Shown here piece after piece: positions 2,755 to 62,671 of a stretch of 64,000 nucleotides of DNA. Both the position numbers and the translations under genes were made by a program. Position 1 is the first letter of the stretch, and every line of letters begins with the position of its first letter. Source of the DNA: Opitutia bacterium (GTDB taxonomy: Bacteria > Verrucomicrobiota > Verrucomicrobiia > Opitutales > UBA953); contig BGOM01000016.1 in NCBI GenBank assembly GCA_003569245.1, positions 28,689-92,688 on the forward strand, written 5' to 3'. The notes beneath the pieces were generated by a model. It made no database searches. It was not told the origin of the DNA and saw only the letters and a program-made list of their open reading frames with translations.

Positions 2755-5090
2755 TGTTTCCTCAGCTTATCGAGCTCCTTCTGGATCTTCTCCTTGTCGT
2801 GCACCAGCTTGCGACCCAGCTCGGGCTCGTCGCACTTGCCGAAGTAGGGCAGCATCACGTCGATGAGGCCGAGCACCGTCTTCATGCGGAAGACGTCGTT
2901 GCCGGTGTCCTCCATCTCGCGGACGTAGATGCGCCGCATCTCCTCGAGGAAGAAGCGTTCCAGTTTCTTGTTGCCCTTCACGGCGGCGTAGAAGTTGTCG
3001 AGCAGCCCGCGGAACGTCGGCAGGTGCTCCCGGTTGTCCTGCAGGGCGTGGCGCAGGTAGAAGAAGAGGTTCTCCTGGCCCTTCGGGGTCGTGTCCTTGA
3101 CCAGCTGGCGGGCGGTGCGCTCGGCCGCGAGGACGATGAGGTCGTAGCGGGTCTTGTCCATCGTGTCGCCGTGCAGGCGCTTCTTCTCGCGCATGAAGAC
3201 CTCGTAGGACTGGCGGCACTCCTTGAAGATCTGCTCGGGCGTCATCTTCGGGTCCGTCCAGACATGCTTCTCCGCGTAGCCGTCGGCGATCGCGAGCATG
3301 TCGGGCCAGCGCTTGTCCTCGTCGGACACGTTGAACGCCACGCGCATGTCGCGCAGGAACCCGCGCCAGCGCTCGTGGTCGGCCTTGGGCCCGAGGTCCT
3401 CGAGGCAGGCGGCGGCCTCCTTCCAGGCGTCGATGGACAGCTCGGCGGCGTGGGTGGCGAAGCGCAGGCAGGCGTAGCGCCCCTCCTGGTCGGTGTTGGC
3501 GGCGTAGACGCGGGCCGCGAGGCGCAGGCGGAAGGCTTTCTCGTAATGGGACTTCATCCGGCGCTTGGGGTCGCCGGTGATCTGGACCTCGAACTCCCCG
3601 ATGCTGCGGCCCGTCTGCGGGTCGCGGGTGTGGCCGTTCGCGTAGCCGTCGGCGTAGCGGCCGGTACCCGGCAGGTTGCGGGGTTCGTTGAAGGGGCGGA
3701 AGCCGTTGCCCATGTTCCACTGGTGGTTCGGCATCAGGTAGGCGAACCAGGCGTGGCCGCCGCGGTTGCCGTCGCCGCCGACGGAGGCCGCGGGGATGCC
3801 GTAGGCGCGCGCGGCGGTGGTGCCGAAGTGGGACTGGTCCATGCAGATGCCGCCGACCTCGAGGATCTCCTCGAGCGTGCCGCGGGTGAAGCTCTCCGCC
3901 AGCGGCTTGTAGGCCTTCTTGCCCGGCGGGGCCTTCGGGGGCTTGGCGCCCGTGACGAAGTCCATGCGGTAGTTGATCATCGGGTAGGCCTCGCTCCAAT
4001 CCTTCTGCTGGTCGCCGTTGGCCAGCTTGAGCTTCCGGAGGTCGTTCTCCTTGAGGGCCCATTCCATCTCCTCGGTCGTCGCCTCGGCGCTCACCACCCA
4101 GATGAGCTCGTAGGGTTCGAGCTTCTTGAGGTCCGTCTCCAGCCGTTGGCGCTGGGCGTTGTCGCGGAAGTAGCGGTAGCGCTCCAGCGCGTCGACCGTG
4201 AAGCGCTCATGCTTGGGGTCGCGGGCGCGGGCGAAGGTGAACTTCTGATCGAAGACCAGGGCGGTCGCCACCTGCAGGTTGACGTACTTGCCCTTGAGCT
4301 CCTTGGCGTCGTCGTTGGCCAGGCGCGCCCAGACGCGGAGGGCGTTGCCGAGGTTGTCCCCGGGTTTGACGTTGGCGAGGAACAGCTCCATCCGTTCGGC
4401 GTCGCCCAGCAGCTCGATGAGGAAAGGCTGGACCTGCTCGTCGGTCATGAACTCCCGCAGGGTCTTCGGAGTCACCTGGCGCACGAAATCCGCCTGCGTC
4501 AGGCCGATCGCGAAGTAGTTGCTTTCCCAGAGGTCATCGAAGCGGCGGGCCCCGTCGGTCGCCGAGGTGGCGGTGAGCGCGGGGTACAGGCCGTAGCGGA
4601 GCCGGTCGTAATGGCTCTCCCACTTGCCGTCGTAGACCCGGGCCTTGGTGTCGGCCAGCAGCGTCGCGCGACACTGCGGGTCGCGGCGCGAGATGGAGTC
4701 GAACGGGTAGGGGCGGGGGGCCAGGGCGGGCAGTGCCTCCTTCACCGTCGGCGTCACCGCGGTGGCGGGGCCGGTCGGCTTGATCGGCGGCTCGACGGCG
4801 GGGCCGGTGCCGGCGGTGGTGCCCGGGACCGTCTCGGTGACGGCGGCGGGCGCGGTCTTGCCGCCGAAGAAACCGGCCACGTCATCGATCAGGCTGGGGG
4901 CGCCGTCCTTCTCCGTGAGTTCGCGCGGGTGCAGGGTGCGGTCATAGACGGCGTAGCCGAACCAAGCCGCGGCCACGAGCACCGGGAGGAGGATGCCGAT
5001 GAGGATGGCTTCGCCGTTCGCGCCTTGGGACGAGGGCTTCTTTGTAGGCAGGGGTTTGGGTTCGAGCGGCGCACGCATGTCTGGGGTCAC
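2751..5090 (-). CDS. Membrane-anchored transglutaminase-like (papain-fold Cys/His) protein with a long helical C-terminal region
   Basis: 779 aa with one N-terminal TM (AILIGILLPVLVAAAWFGYAVY). Core 'GGICMDQSHFGTTAARAYGIPAA...GGHAWFAY' matches the transglutaminase-like C...ARA.GIPAR...HAW pattern (Cys416 codon at 3843..3845). Its stop overlaps the pdxJ start. Confidence 0.6.
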   Translation of the reverse strand: MTPDMRAPLEPKPLPTKKPSSQGANGEAILIGILLPVLVAAAWFGYAVYDRTLHPRELTEKDGAPSLIDDVAGFFGGKTAPAAVTETVPGTTAGTGPAVEPPIKPTGPATAVTPTVKEALPALAPRPYPFDSISRRDPQCRATLLADTKARVYDGKWESHYDRLRYGLYPALTATSATDGARRFDDLWESNYFAIGLTQADFVRQVTPKTLREFMTDEQVQPFLIELLGDAERMELFLANVKPGDNLGNALRVWARLANDDAKELKGKYVNLQVATALVFDQKFTFARARDPKHERFTVDALERYRYFRDNAQRQRLETDLKKLEPYELIWVVSAEATTEEMEWALKENDLRKLKLANGDQQKDWSEAYPMINYRMDFVTGAKPPKAPPGKKAYKPLAESFTRGTLEEILEVGGICMDQSHFGTTAARAYGIPAASVGGDGNRGGHAWFAYLMPNHQWNMGNGFRPFNEPRNLPGTGRYADGYANGHTRDPQTGRSIGEFEVQITGDPKRRMKSHYEKAFRLRLAARVYAANTDQEGRYACLRFATHAAELSIDAWKEAAACLEDLGPKADHERWRGFLRDMRVAFNVSDEDKRWPDMLAIADGYAEKHVWTDPKMTPEQIFKECRQSYEVFMREKKRLHGDTMDKTRYDLIVLAAERTARQLVKDTTPKGQENLFFYLRHALQDNREHLPTFRGLLDNFYAAVKGNKKLERFFLEEMRRIYVREMEDTGNDVFRMKTVLGLIDVMLPYFGKCDEPELGRKLVHDKEKIQKELDKLRKQ

Positions 5091-38413: not shown

Positions 38414-39982
38414 GTGTCCGAACCCGGCTTCCAAGTCATCGCCCGCCGCTGGCGCCCCCGCCGCTTCGATGAGCTGGTCGGGCAGGAGCACATCGTCCGG
38501 ACCCTCCGCAACGCCCTCGAGACGAAGCGCCTGGCCCACGCCTACCTTTTCGTCGGCCCGCGCGGCACCGGCAAGACGACCACCGCGCGCATCCTCGCCA
38601 AGGCGCTCAACTGCACCGGCGGCCCCAAGGCCGACTTCGCCGTCGACGACCCGGTCTGCCTCTCGATCGAGCAGGGCAGCTGCCTCGACGTCGTCGAGAT
38701 CGACGCCGCGTCCAACCGCAGCCTCGAGGACGCCAAGCGCATCCGCGACGAGTGCCAGTTCGCGCCGTCCGCCTGCCCGTTCAAGGTCTTCATCATCGAC
38801 GAGGTCCACCAGCTCACCAAGGACGCCTTCAACGCGCTCCTCAAGACGCTGGAGGAGCCGCCGCCTTGGGTGAAGTTCATCCTCGCGACCACCGAGTCCG
38901 ACAAGGTCCTGCCGACCATCACCTCGCGTTGCCAGCGCCTGGAGTTCCACCCGATCGCCGAGGAGGTCATCGCCGCCCAGCTCGCCCGCATCGTCAAGGC
39001 CGACGGCGTGAAGGCCGACGAGCACGCGCTGACCGCCATCGCGCGCCTGGCCAACGGCGGGATGCGCGACTCGCAGTCGATCCTCGACCAGGTCATCTCG
39101 TTCTCCGGCAAGACGGTCACCGAGGCCGACGTCCTCTCGATCTACGGTCTGGCCTCCGCCCAGCAGGTGACCGACCTCGCCCGGGCGATCGCGACCGGCG
39201 ACGGCCGGGCGATCCTGGCCTTGTGCGACGCCTTCCACACCGAAGGGCGCGACTTGCTCCGCGTGCTGGGCGACCTGCAGGCGAAGGTCCGGCAGGCCTC
39301 CCTCGACTCCGTCCGCCAAGGCGGCACGAGCGCCTTGCTGGGCGCGCCGCTCGCCACGGAACAGCTGGTGCGCGTCCTCGAATGCCTGCAGGCCGGCGAA
39401 CAAGGGATCCGGCAGGGACTTTCGCCCCGGGCCAATTTCGAGGTCACGTTGCTCAAGGCCATCGAGCAAAGCAGGGCGAGGTCGATCGACCTCCTCATCA
39501 AGGACATCGCCGCCGCTTCAGCTGGTCTCCCTCGGGAGCCCGGCGAAAAAAAAATAAACCGGTACCTGGTGCCACCGGTGAACCTCTTCGGGGGGACGCC
39601 CGCCCCGGCGCCGACTTTCGCGACCGCCGCCGCGTCGGCGCCGGCCCCGGCTGTCCGTCGCGAAGCCCCCGCCCCGGTCGTCGACGTGCCGATCGAGGAC
39701 AACCCGGGCTACGAGTCATCGTTGCCGCCGATCGATATCGCCGGCGCCGAGGAGGAGGCCGACCAGGCCGCGGCCCGGAGCGCCTTCGACTTCCCGGTCG
39801 TCGAGCTCCCGGTCACGAAGGTCGCCGAGACCGGCAAGTCGGCCTTCCCGGGTGACCCGGAGTTCCAGGCGGCGTTGGCGGCCTTGCCGGCGGGCCTCGC
39901 GGAGAAACTCCGTTCGACGCTCGGCGCCGAGTTCACCGCGTTGCGTCCCGTGCCGGCGGGCAAACTCCGTCGGCCGGCCTGA
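38414..39982 (+). CDS. dnaX: DNA polymerase III subunit tau/gamma
   Basis: 522 aa from GTG 38414. '[18 protein letters not shown]', '[19 protein letters not shown]', '[12 protein letters not shown]', '[16 protein letters not shown]...TI.SRCQ'. Confidence 0.93.
39546..39557 (+). promoter_or_regulatory. Candidate programmed slippage (recoding) site in dnaX: A9 run followed by TAA in the +1 frame
   Basis: GAA AAA AAA ATA AAC. A9 occupies 39546..39554, and reading AAA AAA AAA TAA gives a stop at 39555..39557. A palindromic ACCGGT...ACCGGT hairpin lies at 39558..39579. Confidence 0.55.
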
Positions 39983-39983
39983 G

Positions 39984-40442
39984 GTGGGCGCGACGGTCGA
40001 GATCGGCGTCCTGGCGGACACGCACGGCCGGCTCCGGCCGGAGGCGGTGATCGCGTTGGCCGGGTGCGCCGAGTACTACGTCGCCGGCGACCTGTGCAGT
40101 CCGCTCATCGTACCCGTGCTCGCCGACCTCGCCCCGACGTTCGCCGTGGCGGGCAACTGCGACGACGATGAGTCGCTCCCGCTGGTCCTCCTGCGCGAGG
40201 TCGCCGGCGTCCGCATCCTGATGCACCACGGGCATCTGCCCGTCGACGAGTCCGCCTACCGGCCCGATGTCGTGATCACCGGACATACCCACGTGCCGCG
40301 GATCGTCCAGGACGGCGGGGTGCTGCGACTCAACCCGGGCAGCGCGGGCCCGCGGCGTTTTAACCTTCCCGTGACGGTGGCCCGCCTTACCTTGCGGGCT
40401 GGCCGGGCTTCCGCCCGGTTGATCGACCTGCCGCTCGCATGA
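39984..40442 (+). CDS. YfcE/MJ0936-family metallophosphoesterase
   Basis: 'IGVLADTHG', 'AGDL', 'VAGNCD', 'MHHGH', 'VITGHTHVP' are phosphoesterase metal-binding motifs. Start assigned to GTG 39984, directly after the dnaX stop (approximate). Its stop overlaps the hrpB ATG. Confidence 0.75.
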   Translation: MGATVEIGVLADTHGRLRPEAVIALAGCAEYYVAGDLCSPLIVPVLADLAPTFAVAGNCDDDESLPLVLLREVAGVRILMHHGHLPVDESAYRPDVVITGHTHVPRIVQDGGVLRLNPGSAGPRRFNLPVTVARLTLRAGRASARLIDLPLA

Positions 40443-45563: not shown

Positions 45564-45598
45564 AGGCGGCAAGGGACCTCCCTTGACCGCCTTTTTTT
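45564..45598 (+). terminator. Rho-independent terminator after mdh
   Basis: AGGCGGCAAGGGA-CC-TCCCTTGACCGCCT hairpin (one bulge) followed by a T7 run. Confidence 0.8.
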
Positions 45599-60325: not shown

Positions 60326-61096
60326 GTGCGTTCGCTCCGGACCATCCGCGACCTCACCGGGGGTCGTTTACCGCCGCTGACTCGCCGGGCCTTGGTCGCC
60401 GGCTTGGTCGTCTTCCTGGCCGTGTTGGTGCTGGTCCGCCCGACTGACGGCGGCTTACCTGCGGTCGAACCGCTCCGCTCGGGCGTTCGCTGGGTAGCCA
60501 AGGGTGATGGTACGACAGAGGCGGCGGTATTGCTCGACCCCTCGGTGGCCTACATGCCGGCCCGCCTGATCAGTGCTCCCGAGGCCACGATGGTCGGACC
60601 TAAGCCGAGCGAGGAAACCCCTTTTGCCCGGCTGGACCGGAGATTGCTCAGTGACCCGATGAAGGGGGACGAGCCCCCGCTGAAGACGACGGACCCCTCC
60701 TCGCCTTTGGTGGCCTCCGCGGTCCCCCTTGCCCAGGCCGAACCCTTTACGACCTTCGGCAGAGCCAATTTGACCCAATCTGGCCTCCCTCCCCGTCATG
60801 GAAGCTTTGAAGTTTTCGACCTTAATGGGGGGTCAAAGCCTTCCATTAGTGGGATTTTGCCCCCTTTAGGGTTTAAAAAGGTCGAATCAGTCGACAAAAA
60901 CAAGGAAAACAACCCACTAGTTGCCTTTTTTGAGGCAACCATCGGGGTTGATTCATTCGGGCTGCAGGGTGCGCCTGCCTTGGTTAGGTCCACCGGCGAT
61001 AAGGCGGTCGACCGAGGGATTTTAACTTGGGCGGCCGGGGTTCCTTGGGCCAGGCATTTGCCCCCCGGATCGTACCGGCTCACGGTCGTCCCCTGA
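60326..61096 (+). CDS. Membrane-anchored protein with a Pro-rich linker and a TonB-C-like terminal domain (tentative)
   Basis: 256 aa from GTG 60326. TM 'ALVAGLVVFLAVLVLV'. The C-terminal 'FFEATIGVDSFGLQGAPALVRSTGDKAVDRGILTWAAGVPW' resembles the TonB_C pattern. The 3' third of the gene is visibly lower in GC. Confidence 0.45.
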   Translation: MRSLRTIRDLTGGRLPPLTRRALVAGLVVFLAVLVLVRPTDGGLPAVEPLRSGVRWVAKGDGTTEAAVLLDPSVAYMPARLISAPEATMVGPKPSEETPFARLDRRLLSDPMKGDEPPLKTTDPSSPLVASAVPLAQAEPFTTFGRANLTQSGLPPRHGSFEVFDLNGGSKPSISGILPPLGFKKVESVDKNKENNPLVAFFEATIGVDSFGLQGAPALVRSTGDKAVDRGILTWAAGVPWARHLPPGSYRLTVVP

Positions 61097-61201: not shown

Positions 61202-61277
61202 GCCCCTGTAGCTCAGTTGGCAGAGCGCGTCCTTGGTAAGGACGAGGTCGCTGGTTCAAATCCAGTCGGGGGCTCCA
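61202..61277 (+). tRNA. tRNA-Thr (anticodon GGT), CCA encoded
   Basis: Manual cloverleaf: acceptor GCCCCTG/CGGGGGC, D arm GCTC-AGTTGGCA-GAGC, anticodon arm CGTCC-TTGGTAA-GGACG, T arm GCTGG-TTCAAAT-CCAGT, discriminator T, then CCA. Confidence 0.9.
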
Positions 61278-62595: not shown

Positions 62596-62671
62596 AGGAC
62601 GGTAGCTCAATTGGCAGAGTAGCGGTCTCCAAAACCGTTGGTTGTGGGTTCGACTCCCACCCGTCCTGCCA
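62596..62671 (+). tRNA. tRNA-Trp (anticodon CCA), CCA encoded
   Basis: Manual cloverleaf: acceptor AGGACGG/CCGTCCT, anticodon arm GCGGT-CTCCAAA-ACCGT, T arm GTGGG-TTCGACT-CCCAC, discriminator G, then CCA. Confidence 0.9.

Follow-up and report, generated by a model that had tools for sequence, protein, structure and literature searches.

The window analysed here is a 64-kb stretch of Opitutales DNA with a G+C content of 68.8%, and it carries a dnaX gene on the forward strand (38414..39982). The gene starts with GTG, and its zero-frame product, as identified from the ORF list and from family matches, is a full-length, tau-like protein of 522 aa. It scores above the curated cut-offs of NCBIfam NF004046 (406.8 bits, cut-off 400) and of TIGR02397, dnaX_nterm (380 bits, cut-off 250), the latter matching aa 7-348. 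Domains I-III are covered by Pfam matches to PF13177 (136 bits), PF22608 and PF12169 (DNA_pol3_delta2, DNAX_ATPase_lid and DNA_pol3_gamma3), which end near aa 353; the end of domain III is placed near aa 353-365. A PDB match pairs residues 5-288 with residues 2-285 of E. coli gamma (gamma/tau, E = 1e-66). The extreme C-terminus of the long product is formed by an element of about 50 aa (39836..39979, forward strand), which is conserved across the proteins termed type 1 below and missing from the short product; a Pfam search with it returned no family match. Its position suggests that it may be the tau-specific region that binds polymerase alpha.

Past domain III, 73% of the way through dnaX, lies an uninterrupted run of nine A's (A9; 39546..39554, forward strand, T9 in the template). 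The run begins at the second position of codon 378, includes codons 379 and 380, and ends with the first position of codon 381 of the 522, so that E378 K379 K380 I381 N382 is written GAA AAA AAA ATA AAC, with G39545 before the run and T39555 A A A C after it. Directly adjoining the run is a TAA stop in the +1 frame (39555..39557, forward strand). The rare Ile381 codon ATA (39554..39556, forward strand) contributes the ninth A as well as the first two bases, TA, of this out-of-frame stop, which would end a short product on an A8 or A11 mRNA, or after a +1 or -2 shift of the ribosome. The product predicted for an A8 transcript has 380 aa (41.2 kDa) and the C-terminal end ...REPGEKK. An earlier, sequence-only reading of the locus had described this site within E378-K-K-I-N, the adjoining stop and the 380-aa product; its placement of the run is exact to the base, and the other two are as it stated. 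Its remark on the scarcity of A/T homopolymers also holds throughout the window, in which A9 is the sole A/T run longer than 7; the next longest are a single T7 and A6 or T6 runs (three in all). Runs of at least nine A's are expected 0.004 (independent bases) to 0.02 (first-order Markov) times in 64 kb. A +1-frame stop at distance 0 has a background frequency of 2.7% of positions in these dnaX genes.

The -1 frame, which would be reached on an A10 or A7 mRNA, reads through from 39553 to a TGA ending at 39855 (forward strand) and adds an Arg-rich tail of 100 codons, for a predicted A10 product of 480 aa. This extension exists as the sequence-only reading described it, but it is not conserved. 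The -1-frame stop stands 14-289 codons after the run in the window's subclade (63-289 in close relatives, 14 in L003) and 4-34 codons after it in 34 other type-1 species, where the distance lies slightly below the background median of 23, a difference so marginal that we claim no selection on a -1 stop. Given such variation among close relatives, the 100-codon ORF is rejected as a functional alternative C-terminus; it is probably an accident of high G+C.

An ACCGGT...ACCGGT hairpin follows the run (39558..39579, forward strand; copies at 39558-39563 and 39574-39579). This repeat, too, had been noted before and is present, but its conservation is confined to the window and L001-L004; it is broken in L005 and replaced by unrelated sequence in the other type-1 lineages. 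No consistent structure emerged when the 50 nt 3' of the run were folded in 70+ loci (z mostly -1 to +1). The hairpin is thus not a conserved part of the signal, and its narrow distribution, together with the lack of a consistent fold elsewhere, leads us to reject it as a stimulator.

Conservation of the run and of a hairpin upstream of it

We term type 1 those dnaX genes in which tau occupies the zero frame; the comparison among them covers 41 species-level Opitutales genomes (GTDB) and metagenome contigs. The pattern S-A9-TA-R is kept in 41/41 type-1 species, down to about 50% DnaX identity, with TAA or TAG as the adjoining stop in each. Among the metagenome dnaX contigs, which were found with a run-length-tolerant pattern, A9 is present in 78 of 83 (94%), and the stop adjoins the run in all 78 of these (65 TAA, 13 TAG). 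Run lengths of A8, A10 or A11 occur in the other 5/83 contigs and in two GTDB MAGs (L034 and L036).

At the protein level, G[EQ]KKI is found in 120/120 homologues, and the sequences diverge completely straight after the motif. The codons are fixed as well, SAA AAA AAA ATA being invariant in 40/40 aligned type-1 CDSs. Elsewhere in these genes the codon shares are 26% for AAA, 28% for CAA and 38% for GAA, and ATA accounts for 5% of Ile codons; nevertheless, Ile381 is written ATA in all 40. The synonymous difference is 0.027 over codons 374-382, whereas its mean for the gene is 0.47, and each of the 11 lowest-scoring windows along the gene includes the site. This pattern indicates that selection is acting on the nucleotides of the A9 site, not on the protein alone. 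An alignment of orthologues, the check proposed with the sequence-only reading, therefore finds both the A-run and the out-of-frame stop conserved at this position in relatives, and the comparison strongly supports the view that A9 is a real recoding signal, conserved across the order Opitutales.

A GC-rich hairpin that could form in the nascent RNA, GCUGGUCUCC-CUCG-GGAGCCCGGC (39521..39544, forward strand), ends 1 nt before the run. The sequence-only reading had missed it. Its stem has 10 positions, of which nine form pairs in the window and one, U39526/C39539, is mismatched; the hairpin folds at -16.4 kcal/mol. A run-abutting hairpin of -10 kcal/mol or lower is present in 41 of 42 type-1 loci, with a median of -15.0, a value that 1% of control positions reach. 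Across 16 distinct related sequences, in a region that overlaps a conserved peptide, 90% of the hairpin cells are paired, versus 17-58% in slid controls; the same 16 sequences give modest support for covariation, with compensatory changes at two pairs and a covariation score that was reached by 1 of 500 shuffles. In codons 374-377, which form the 3' arm, synonymous sites hardly vary. Since the hairpin overlaps both the conserved peptide GLPREPG and the Shine-Dalgarno-like pentamer GGGAG, other causes of its conservation are possible. We propose that it may stimulate slippage, perhaps biasing it toward the loss of one A. The pentamer itself (39534..39538, forward strand) lies within the hairpin, 8 nt 5' of the in-phase heptamer A_AAA_AAA, and aligns with AGGGAG of the E. 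coli element in a sub-threshold match to RF00382; it matters only for the ribosomal explanations considered below.

Sister clades with tau in another frame

Three further configurations occur in the order. In 22 species the run is an A10 that lies in phase 2, and tau is encoded in the -1 frame. Six species (Opitutaceae) have an A9 in phase 3, again with a -1 tau, and five (Spyradosoma/Spyradenecus) have an A10 in phase 3 and a +1 tau. In all 33, the zero frame stops 1-2 codons past the run and gamma is in frame, so that a full-length tau-like protein would need a change of frame. The configurations track clades, with at least three to four switches between them. The C-terminal motif family of type-1 DnaX is also encoded in the alternative frame of these two-ORF (type-2) lineages. 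A single-sequence BLAST search of the window's C-terminus against the type-2 tails matched only those of Spyradenecus (L044-L046), and a small HMM added L062 and L070; the remaining type-2 tails were tied to the type-1 C-terminus by eye through a common motif, which is weaker evidence.

Runs of 9-10 A's that vary in phase and feed different frames are the criterion of Antonov et al. for transcriptional realignment (PMC3711429). The Opitutales display A9 and A10 in different phases, which fits slippage by RNA polymerase. The idea that a programmed slip just past domain III yields a gamma-like DnaX, put forward in the sequence-only reading, thus gains support from the 41/41 and 78/78 counts, from the synonymous constraint and from the sister clades. 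Why bacteria keep both tau and gamma has been an open question for 30 years (bioRxiv 10.1101/2022.11.10.516041). That one order keeps an A-run at one position while the product that is in frame has been swapped repeatedly is strong evolutionary evidence that both forms matter; to judge from these genomes, the tau:gamma ratio probably matters too. Annotation pipelines will call type 1 as single-product and type 2 as split or pseudogenised, and MAG quality tools may flag type-2 dnaX genes as frameshift errors.

Probable slippage and its alternatives

The A9 run is probably a programmed slippage site, by which one dnaX gene would give both a tau-like protein of 522 aa and a gamma-like protein of about 380 aa through slippage of RNA polymerase; slippage at the RNA level is favoured over ribosomal shifting. 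Because A9:T9 fills the 9-10-bp RNA-DNA hybrid, the polymerase would realign the nascent RNA on the T9 template and produce a mixed mRNA population. Transcripts with A9, A6 or A12 would encode tau, those with A8 or A11 would bring the adjoining TAA into frame and end in ...REPGEKK(K)-stop, and those with A10 would carry the non-conserved -1-frame tail. The GC-rich hairpin 1 nt 5' of the run would stimulate the process. The sole invariant out-of-frame stop belongs to the frame that is reached by a 1-nt deletion, and the absence of other A/T runs longer than 7 from the window is as expected if selection removes runs that slip. The occurrence, direction and efficiency of slippage, and a gamma function for the short protein, are what we infer from this arrangement.

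Possible, although to us somewhat doubtful, is a version in which the hairpin itself drives deletion-biased slippage. The stem would melt the upstream end of the hybrid and push the transcript forward, and the resulting A8 mRNAs, together with the UAA, would set the tau:gamma ratio. If true, this would be the first case in an essential cellular gene of a terminator-like mechanism that has until now been described only in one IS element, and it would account both for the conservation of the deletion-frame stop alone and for the lack of a hairpin in those sister clades that need an insertion for tau. The link between the hairpin and the deletion frame draws on about two clades, which means that phylogenetic inertia could account for it. 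The conserved hairpin is also a testable handle on how the efficiency and direction of slippage are tuned in a cellular gene.

Two features of the site deserve mention as caveats to slippage. At the T. thermophilus site insertions reportedly predominate, which would make A10 the commonest shifted mRNA, yet the A10 frame of the window is open for 100 codons. In addition, a 5'-adjacent hairpin, a rare AUA in the A site and an AAA in the P site able to re-pair at +1 would also be seen at a ribosomal +1 site (PMC6321510).

Ribosomal frameshifting by +1 (or -2) would yield the same gamma-like protein of about 380 aa. With AUA in the A site and the P-site Lys-tRNA on AAA 39551-53, re-pairing on 39552-54 would let UAA enter, and the refolding 5' hairpin would push forward. 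Much at the site is compatible with such a shift: the +1 stop that adjoins the run is the one invariant stop outside the zero frame, ATA is rare (5%) yet invariant at Ile381, and the 5' hairpin is conserved, a hairpin 5' of the shift site being credited in PMC6321510 with lowering -1 and stimulating +1 frameshifting, including in a 70S system. A P-site slip needs only AAA_A, however, so the nine invariant A's, including the third positions of codons 378 and 379, exceed what it requires and are left unexplained. It also does not account for the A9 and A10 phases of the sister clades, which feed both the -1 and the +1 frame, and A9 is expected to cause slippage of bacterial RNA polymerase regardless; we therefore regard a +1 shift as unlikely. 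A -1 shift of the E. coli type, with GGGAG 8 nt 5', the heptamer A_AAA_AAA and the downstream ACCGGU stem-loop as stimulator, seems highly improbable. The heptamer is in the correct phase, and RF00382 aligns over its full length to 39530-39583, where it matches GGGAGC, the A-run and AACCGG...CCGGUGAA, but this alignment reaches 15.6 bits where the gathering score is 35 (E = 0.2-0.6, even with only 161-501 nt searched), and a scan of the whole window at gathering thresholds returned no RF00382 hit. Neither the window nor its close relatives have a nearby -1-frame stop (63-289 codons; 14 in L003), the distances elsewhere being weakly below background, and the downstream stem is restricted to the nearest relatives, with no consistent fold in other lineages.

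Other explanations dispense with a programmed shift. The run could simply code for a conserved Lys-Lys-Ile linker, or hairpin and run could serve another role in the mRNA or DNA, with full-length DnaX as the only product. The conservation of G[EQ]KKI and GLPREPG at the protein level agrees with this, but it explains neither the invariant rare synonymous codons nor the invariant out-of-frame stop. In 33 species, moreover, the run stands between a gamma-length ORF and a tau C-terminus that is encoded in a different frame, and tau has proved essential wherever studied (bioRxiv 10.1101/2022.11.10.516041). We give this account little credence. Phase variation at the DNA level, in which replication slippage changes the length of a contingency tract and a population holds tau-encoding and gamma-encoding alleles, could draw on the existing A8, A10 and A11 assemblies (5/83 metagenome contigs; L034 and L036) and on an architecture that has flipped several times in evolution. 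It appears exceedingly improbable, however, as dnaX is single and essential, a wrong-frame allele would lack tau unless rescued by RNA-level slippage, and 94% of assemblies carry A9 exactly; the variants could equally be homopolymer sequencing or assembly errors. Finally, the ACCGGT hairpin followed by TTATTTTTTT could act as an intrinsic terminator on the minus strand and halt antisense transcription. A consensus scan does call a terminator-like site there (39579..39558, minus strand, T-run included), but it finds two such sites versus 0.9 expected by chance, no genuine minus-strand gene ends at the site, and the A-run, unlike the hairpin, is conserved beyond the nearest relatives. Without such a gene and such conservation, a terminator is rejected, its probability being in our estimate negligible.

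Relation to known systems

Slippage by RNA polymerase, the reading that we prefer, has a close parallel in T. thermophilus dnaX, in which slippage on A9 gives tau and gamma at about 1:1 (Larsen et al. 2000, as cited in PMC1088944 and PMC5009743); in bacteria, runs of 9 A/T slip efficiently (PMC5009743). In both genes, an uninterrupted A9 in the sense strand lies past the clamp-loader core, tau is a single zero-frame ORF, a short gamma results, or in the window would result, when the count of A's is not 9 +/- 3n, and the genome, rich in G+C, avoids runs of this kind elsewhere. The T. thermophilus gene differs in that nearby stops in both alternative frames and mostly insertions are reported for it (PMC5009743), whereas the window conserves only the adjoining +1 stop. 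The T. thermophilus run stands at about 7/8 of the gene in the account given in PMC1088944, compared with 73% in the window, which comes from the Verrucomicrobiota. In contrast to T. thermophilus dnaX, the window's gene is known from its sequence. A conserved hairpin abuts its run on the 5' side.

The two-ORF poly-A dnaX genes of Antonov et al. (2013, PMC3711429) come from the same order, Coraliomargarita akajimensis being present in the supplementary alignment. They share with the window an A9-A10 run right past domain III, and both products are inferred from one gene. Unlike the window, in which tau is in frame and gamma would be the shifted product, they have a zero frame that ends 1-2 codons after the run and a tau that is out of frame. 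A tau-in-frame arrangement is not one that frameshift-finding pipelines such as GeneTack could flag, and it is hard to call by comparison (Baranov 2005, PMC1088944).

The -1 frameshift element of E. coli dnaX (A_AAA_AAG, an upstream Shine-Dalgarno sequence and a downstream stem-loop; RF00382) acts in the same gene and with the same biological outcome, and the window offers an SD-like GGGAG together with an A-rich heptamer in phase and a local stem resembling ACCGG...CCGGUGAA. The window's site differs in its sub-threshold Rfam score, in having no nearby -1 stop, in a downstream stem that is not conserved, and in a run that is longer than a heptamer and whose extra A's are conserved.

For the putative role of the 5' hairpin, the closest likeness is the Roseiflexus IS630 element (Penno et al. 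2015, as summarised in PMC5009743), in which a GC-rich stem-loop lies directly 5' of a slip motif of about 10 nt and the useful product comes from a transcript minus one nucleotide; the window likewise presents a stem, 1 nt, A9 and a stop in the deletion frame. The IS630 motif, unlike A9, is heteropolymeric (T5C5) and, according to the same summary, does not slip without its hairpin, whereas A9 should slip alone. Moreover, IS630 encodes a transposase, and dnaX is an essential cellular gene. In Caulobacter crescentus, too, a single dnaX gene is the source of tau and of shorter gamma forms, a sign that possession of both is important, although there the route is post-translational proteolysis by ClpXP, without a slippery sequence (bioRxiv 10.1101/2022.11.10.516041). 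Slippage in dnaX is known already in T. thermophilus and has been proposed for the two-ORF genes of the Opitutales; the window, to judge by its frames, would be the tau-in-frame version, and the order adds a phylum-level example beyond the Thermus, Proteobacteria and Chlorobi/Bacteroidetes cases.

The dnaX gene, its A9 run and the predicted products

The forward-strand ORF at 38414..39982 encodes a 522-aa protein identified as DnaX, with NCBIfam models NF004046 and TIGR02397 both exceeding their cut-offs. Pfam delta2/AAA, lid and gamma-domain-III modules reach approximately residue 353, and E. coli gamma residues 2-285 align with residues 5-288. The gene lies downstream of guaA and is followed by genes for a metallophosphoesterase and an HrpB-type helicase. 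The dnaX stop codon, TGA (39980-82), is separated by 1 nt from the GTG start of the Metallophos_2 phosphoesterase gene (39984..40442; junction 39980-39986), which the helicase start at 40439 overlaps, a spacing that suggests a densely packed operon. The long minus-strand ORFs around dnaX are the usual high-G+C artefacts.

As the sequence-only reading described, an uninterrupted A9 run occupies 39546-39554 within codons 378-382 (GAA AAA AAA ATA AAC), with a +1-frame TAA directly 3' of it at 39555-57. The window has a G+C content of 68.8% and A/T homopolymers are indeed scarce; after A9, the longest are one T7 and then three 6-nt runs, and the chance expectation for runs of at least nine A is 0.004 to 0.02. 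The T7, the second-longest homopolymer, is found at 45592-45598. A T6 at 60926-60931 falls within the loop enclosed by GTTGCC and GGCAAC, and tRNA-Thr(GGT) (61202-61277) follows ~270 nt further downstream; tRNA-Trp(CCA) is at 62596-62671.

In silico, a transcript with eight A residues at the run (A8) yields 380 aa and an A11 transcript 381 aa, both ending ...REPGEKK(K). This predicted 41-kDa, gamma-like product would extend ~25 residues beyond the point where Pfam or TIGRFAM matches to the clamp-loader core stop. An A10 transcript, read in the -1 frame, yields 480 aa with the Arg-rich, 100-codon tail to 39855 that had been anticipated.

Conservation and nucleotide-level selection

The nearest DnaX proteins belong to uncultured freshwater Opitutales of the phylum Verrucomicrobiota. 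At the run, G-[EQ]-K-K-I is common to all 120 homologues listed (69-99% identity), and directly after it their sequences diverge completely. The site was then located in dnaX DNA of 80 species-representative genomes. The pairing of A-run and out-of-frame stop seen by the sequence-only reading recurs in 41 species, the most divergent at ~50% DnaX identity. In this arrangement, hereafter type 1, A9 begins at codon position 2, the zero frame encodes tau (full-length DnaX), and a +1-frame TAA or TAG adjoins the run in 41/41 species, against a background of 2.7% of positions in these genes with an immediate +1-frame stop. In the other configurations, the zero frame stops 1-2 codons past the run and a long ORF runs on in another frame. 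Of these, 22 species (Coraliomargarita, Lentimonas, Puniceicoccaceae) combine A10 in phase 2 with a -1-frame tau, six Opitutaceae species (e.g. Oleiharenicola and Lacunisphaera) have A9 in phase 3 and tau likewise in -1, and five (Spyradosoma, Spyradenecus) have A10 in phase 3 and tau in +1. A small HMM places the ends of the shifted ORFs of five loci (L044-46, L062 and L070) in the C-terminal motif family of the window's tau, and inspection of the sequences suggests the same for the others. In a neighbour-joining tree built from the N-terminal region, each configuration follows clade boundaries, and at least three or four switches are needed.

Metagenome contigs were scanned with a pattern that allowed any run length, which returned 83 dnaX contigs. 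A9 occurs in 78 of them, in every case with a TAA (65) or TAG (13) triplet directly 3' of the run; the remaining five have A8 (two), A10 (two) or A11 (one) (L107, L148, L089, L116 and L091). Two GTDB MAGs with otherwise type-1 dnaX likewise carry A11 (L034, run at ~1651) and A10 (L036, ~4133). The non-A9 assemblies may be homopolymer sequencing errors, or genuine polymorphism tolerated because slippage yields both products. Only the two Candidatus Moanabacter loci do not have a long run at the site; L053 (~4100-4250) has GAAGAAAAAACG and one in-frame ORF, and L078 has no run. One locus (L073, run at ~4121) groups with the A10 two-ORF clade (~50% identity), yet carries C-A9-TAG, exactly the type-1 motif, and keeps tau in frame, but has no 5' hairpin; its motif is either a retained ancestral state or of independent origin. 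In L037, the zero frame of the 3' part of dnaX stops (TAG) after 101 codons, versus 136 in the near-identical L021, and a search for the C-terminal motif found none; an assembly error or a further frameshift is possibly responsible. Two MAGs titled 'uncultured Klebsiella sp.' and 'Akkermansia muciniphila' (L007 and L020) carry the Opitutales motif in dnaX genes 77-79% identical to that of the window, and are probably mislabelled or contaminated bins.

For 40 type-1 genes aligned by codon, synonymous variability was scored per column as the frequency with which same-amino-acid pairs differ in codon. Codons 374-382 average 0.027 against a gene mean of 0.47; the 11 lowest nine-codon windows all overlap the run site, and the next-best region scores 0.26. 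SAA AAA AAA ATA is present in 40/40 genes, although elsewhere in type-1 dnaX each of the codons concerned is a minority choice: AAA makes up 26% of its Lys family, ATA 5% for Ile, CAA 28% for Gln and GAA 38% for Glu. The site is thus built of codons disfavoured in the same genes, which, together with the synonymous constraint, cannot be put down to a conserved Lys-Lys-Ile peptide. By these comparisons, the A9 signal is real and well conserved.

Hairpins flanking the run

The ACCGGT...ACCGGT hairpin noted downstream of the run is present in the window, but it is confined to the window and four related loci (L001-L004) and is broken in a fifth (L005); downstream of the run in other type-1 lineages, the sequence is unrelated to it and folds are inconsistent. 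A different hairpin, absent from the sequence-only reading, lies upstream on the forward strand, GCUGGUCUCC-CUCG-GGAGCCCGGC (39521-39544), ending 1 nt before A9. Among type-1 loci, 41/42 have a run-abutting hairpin of -10 kcal/mol or lower (median -15.0 kcal/mol); for control positions from those genes the median is -2.7, and only 1% reach -15. The 28 loci with tau in the -1 frame resemble background (median -5.6), and the five with tau in +1 are intermediate (-9.3). Across 16 distinct sequences, 90% of cells at stem positions are paired, versus 17-58% with slid partners. In two stem pairs both partners have changed (G-C to A-U; mismatch to C-G or A-U), and 1/500 shuffles attained the observed covariation score for these 16 distinct but related sequences. 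With related sequences, and with a stem lying over the conserved peptide GLPREPG and an SD-like GGGAG, the support for the hairpin is moderate, not conclusive.

Proposed slippage, its alternatives and known systems

Programmed transcriptional slippage at A9 is the best-supported explanation, and the sequence-only reading appears to have interpreted the run correctly, judging by run conservation, synonymous constraint and two-ORF relatives. Tau would be translated from A9 mRNAs and the gamma-like protein from A8 and A11 mRNAs. All nine A residues are conserved, including positions that neither a ribosomal heptamer nor P-site slippage to +1 would require, and the 9-10 nt runs of related lineages, in differing phases, serve both -1 and +1 frames; both facts favour transcriptional slippage. 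Retention of runs in different phases and frames is the criterion of Antonov et al. for transcriptional realignment (PMC3711429). A ribosomal +1/-2 shift is an unlikely alternative: AAA in the P site could re-pair at +1, the A site would hold AUA, a rare codon, and refolding of a 5' hairpin is described as promoting +1 shifting (PMC6321510), but the full A9 and the other phases and frames of sister clades would be left unexplained.

E. coli-type -1 frameshifting draws on a striking local resemblance to Rfam RF00382, which aligns at full length to 39530-39583 (+) and matches GGGAGC, the A-run and AACCGG-loop-CCGGUGAA. The score, however, reaches only 15.6 bits where the gathering score is 35, there is no nearby -1-frame stop and the downstream stem is unconserved, leaving this mechanism highly improbable; the sub-threshold match may be chance, convergence or a relic. 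That the run involves no recoding is very unlikely, and DNA-level phase variation is scarcely credible. A minus-strand terminator, suggested by the intrinsic-terminator-like score of the ACCGGT hairpin followed by TTATTTTTTT inside dnaX (39579..39546, -), was rejected as next to impossible, as no minus-strand gene ends there and the hairpin is unconserved. Each of these three is contradicted by the synonymous-site data, the two-ORF relatives or non-conservation.

Transcriptional slippage on dnaX poly-A runs is established in Thermus. According to the Atkins review (PMC5009743), the RNA-DNA hybrid is 9-10 bp, a length that nine A:T pairs fit, and runs of nine A or nine T slip efficiently in bacteria. 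In T. thermophilus, whose dnaX likewise has a nine-A run, such slippage is reported to give tau:gamma of ~1:1 (PMC5009743; PMC1088944). Frame-flipping single-base indels can be tolerated because each template gives both products, a point that the review makes for dnaX. Predicted poly-A slippage in two-ORF dnaX genes covers twelve genera, one of them Opitutales, and the supplementary alignment includes the A10 dnaX of Coraliomargarita akajimensis, of the same order as the window (PMC3711429). The in-frame A9 arrangement in Verrucomicrobiota was not found in full-text literature searches; in-frame cases escape frameshift-finding pipelines and, as Baranov et al. remark, are hard to call by comparison (PMC1088944). 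Follow-up is merited by the conserved 5' hairpin and by the switching of architecture across the order.

The +1-frame stop is invariant in type 1 and the -1-frame stop is not, its distance being 4-34 codons in 34 species (background median 23) and, within the subclade to which the window belongs, 14-289 codons. Thermus slippage is reported to be insertion-biased (PMC5009743), and the same bias here would make A10 the commonest shifted mRNA and yield a junk-tailed protein. An upstream hairpin that steers slippage towards deletion might sidestep this problem, and we tentatively raise, as a doubtful possibility, that the 5' hairpin drives dnaX slippage with such a bias. A parallel is Roseiflexus IS630, in which the slip motif is immediately preceded by a GC-rich stem-loop described as favouring forward realignment and 1-nt-short transcripts (PMC5009743). 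The window shares this stem-then-run geometry and, where the Roseiflexus transcripts are one nucleotide short, its conserved stop likewise lies in the deletion frame.
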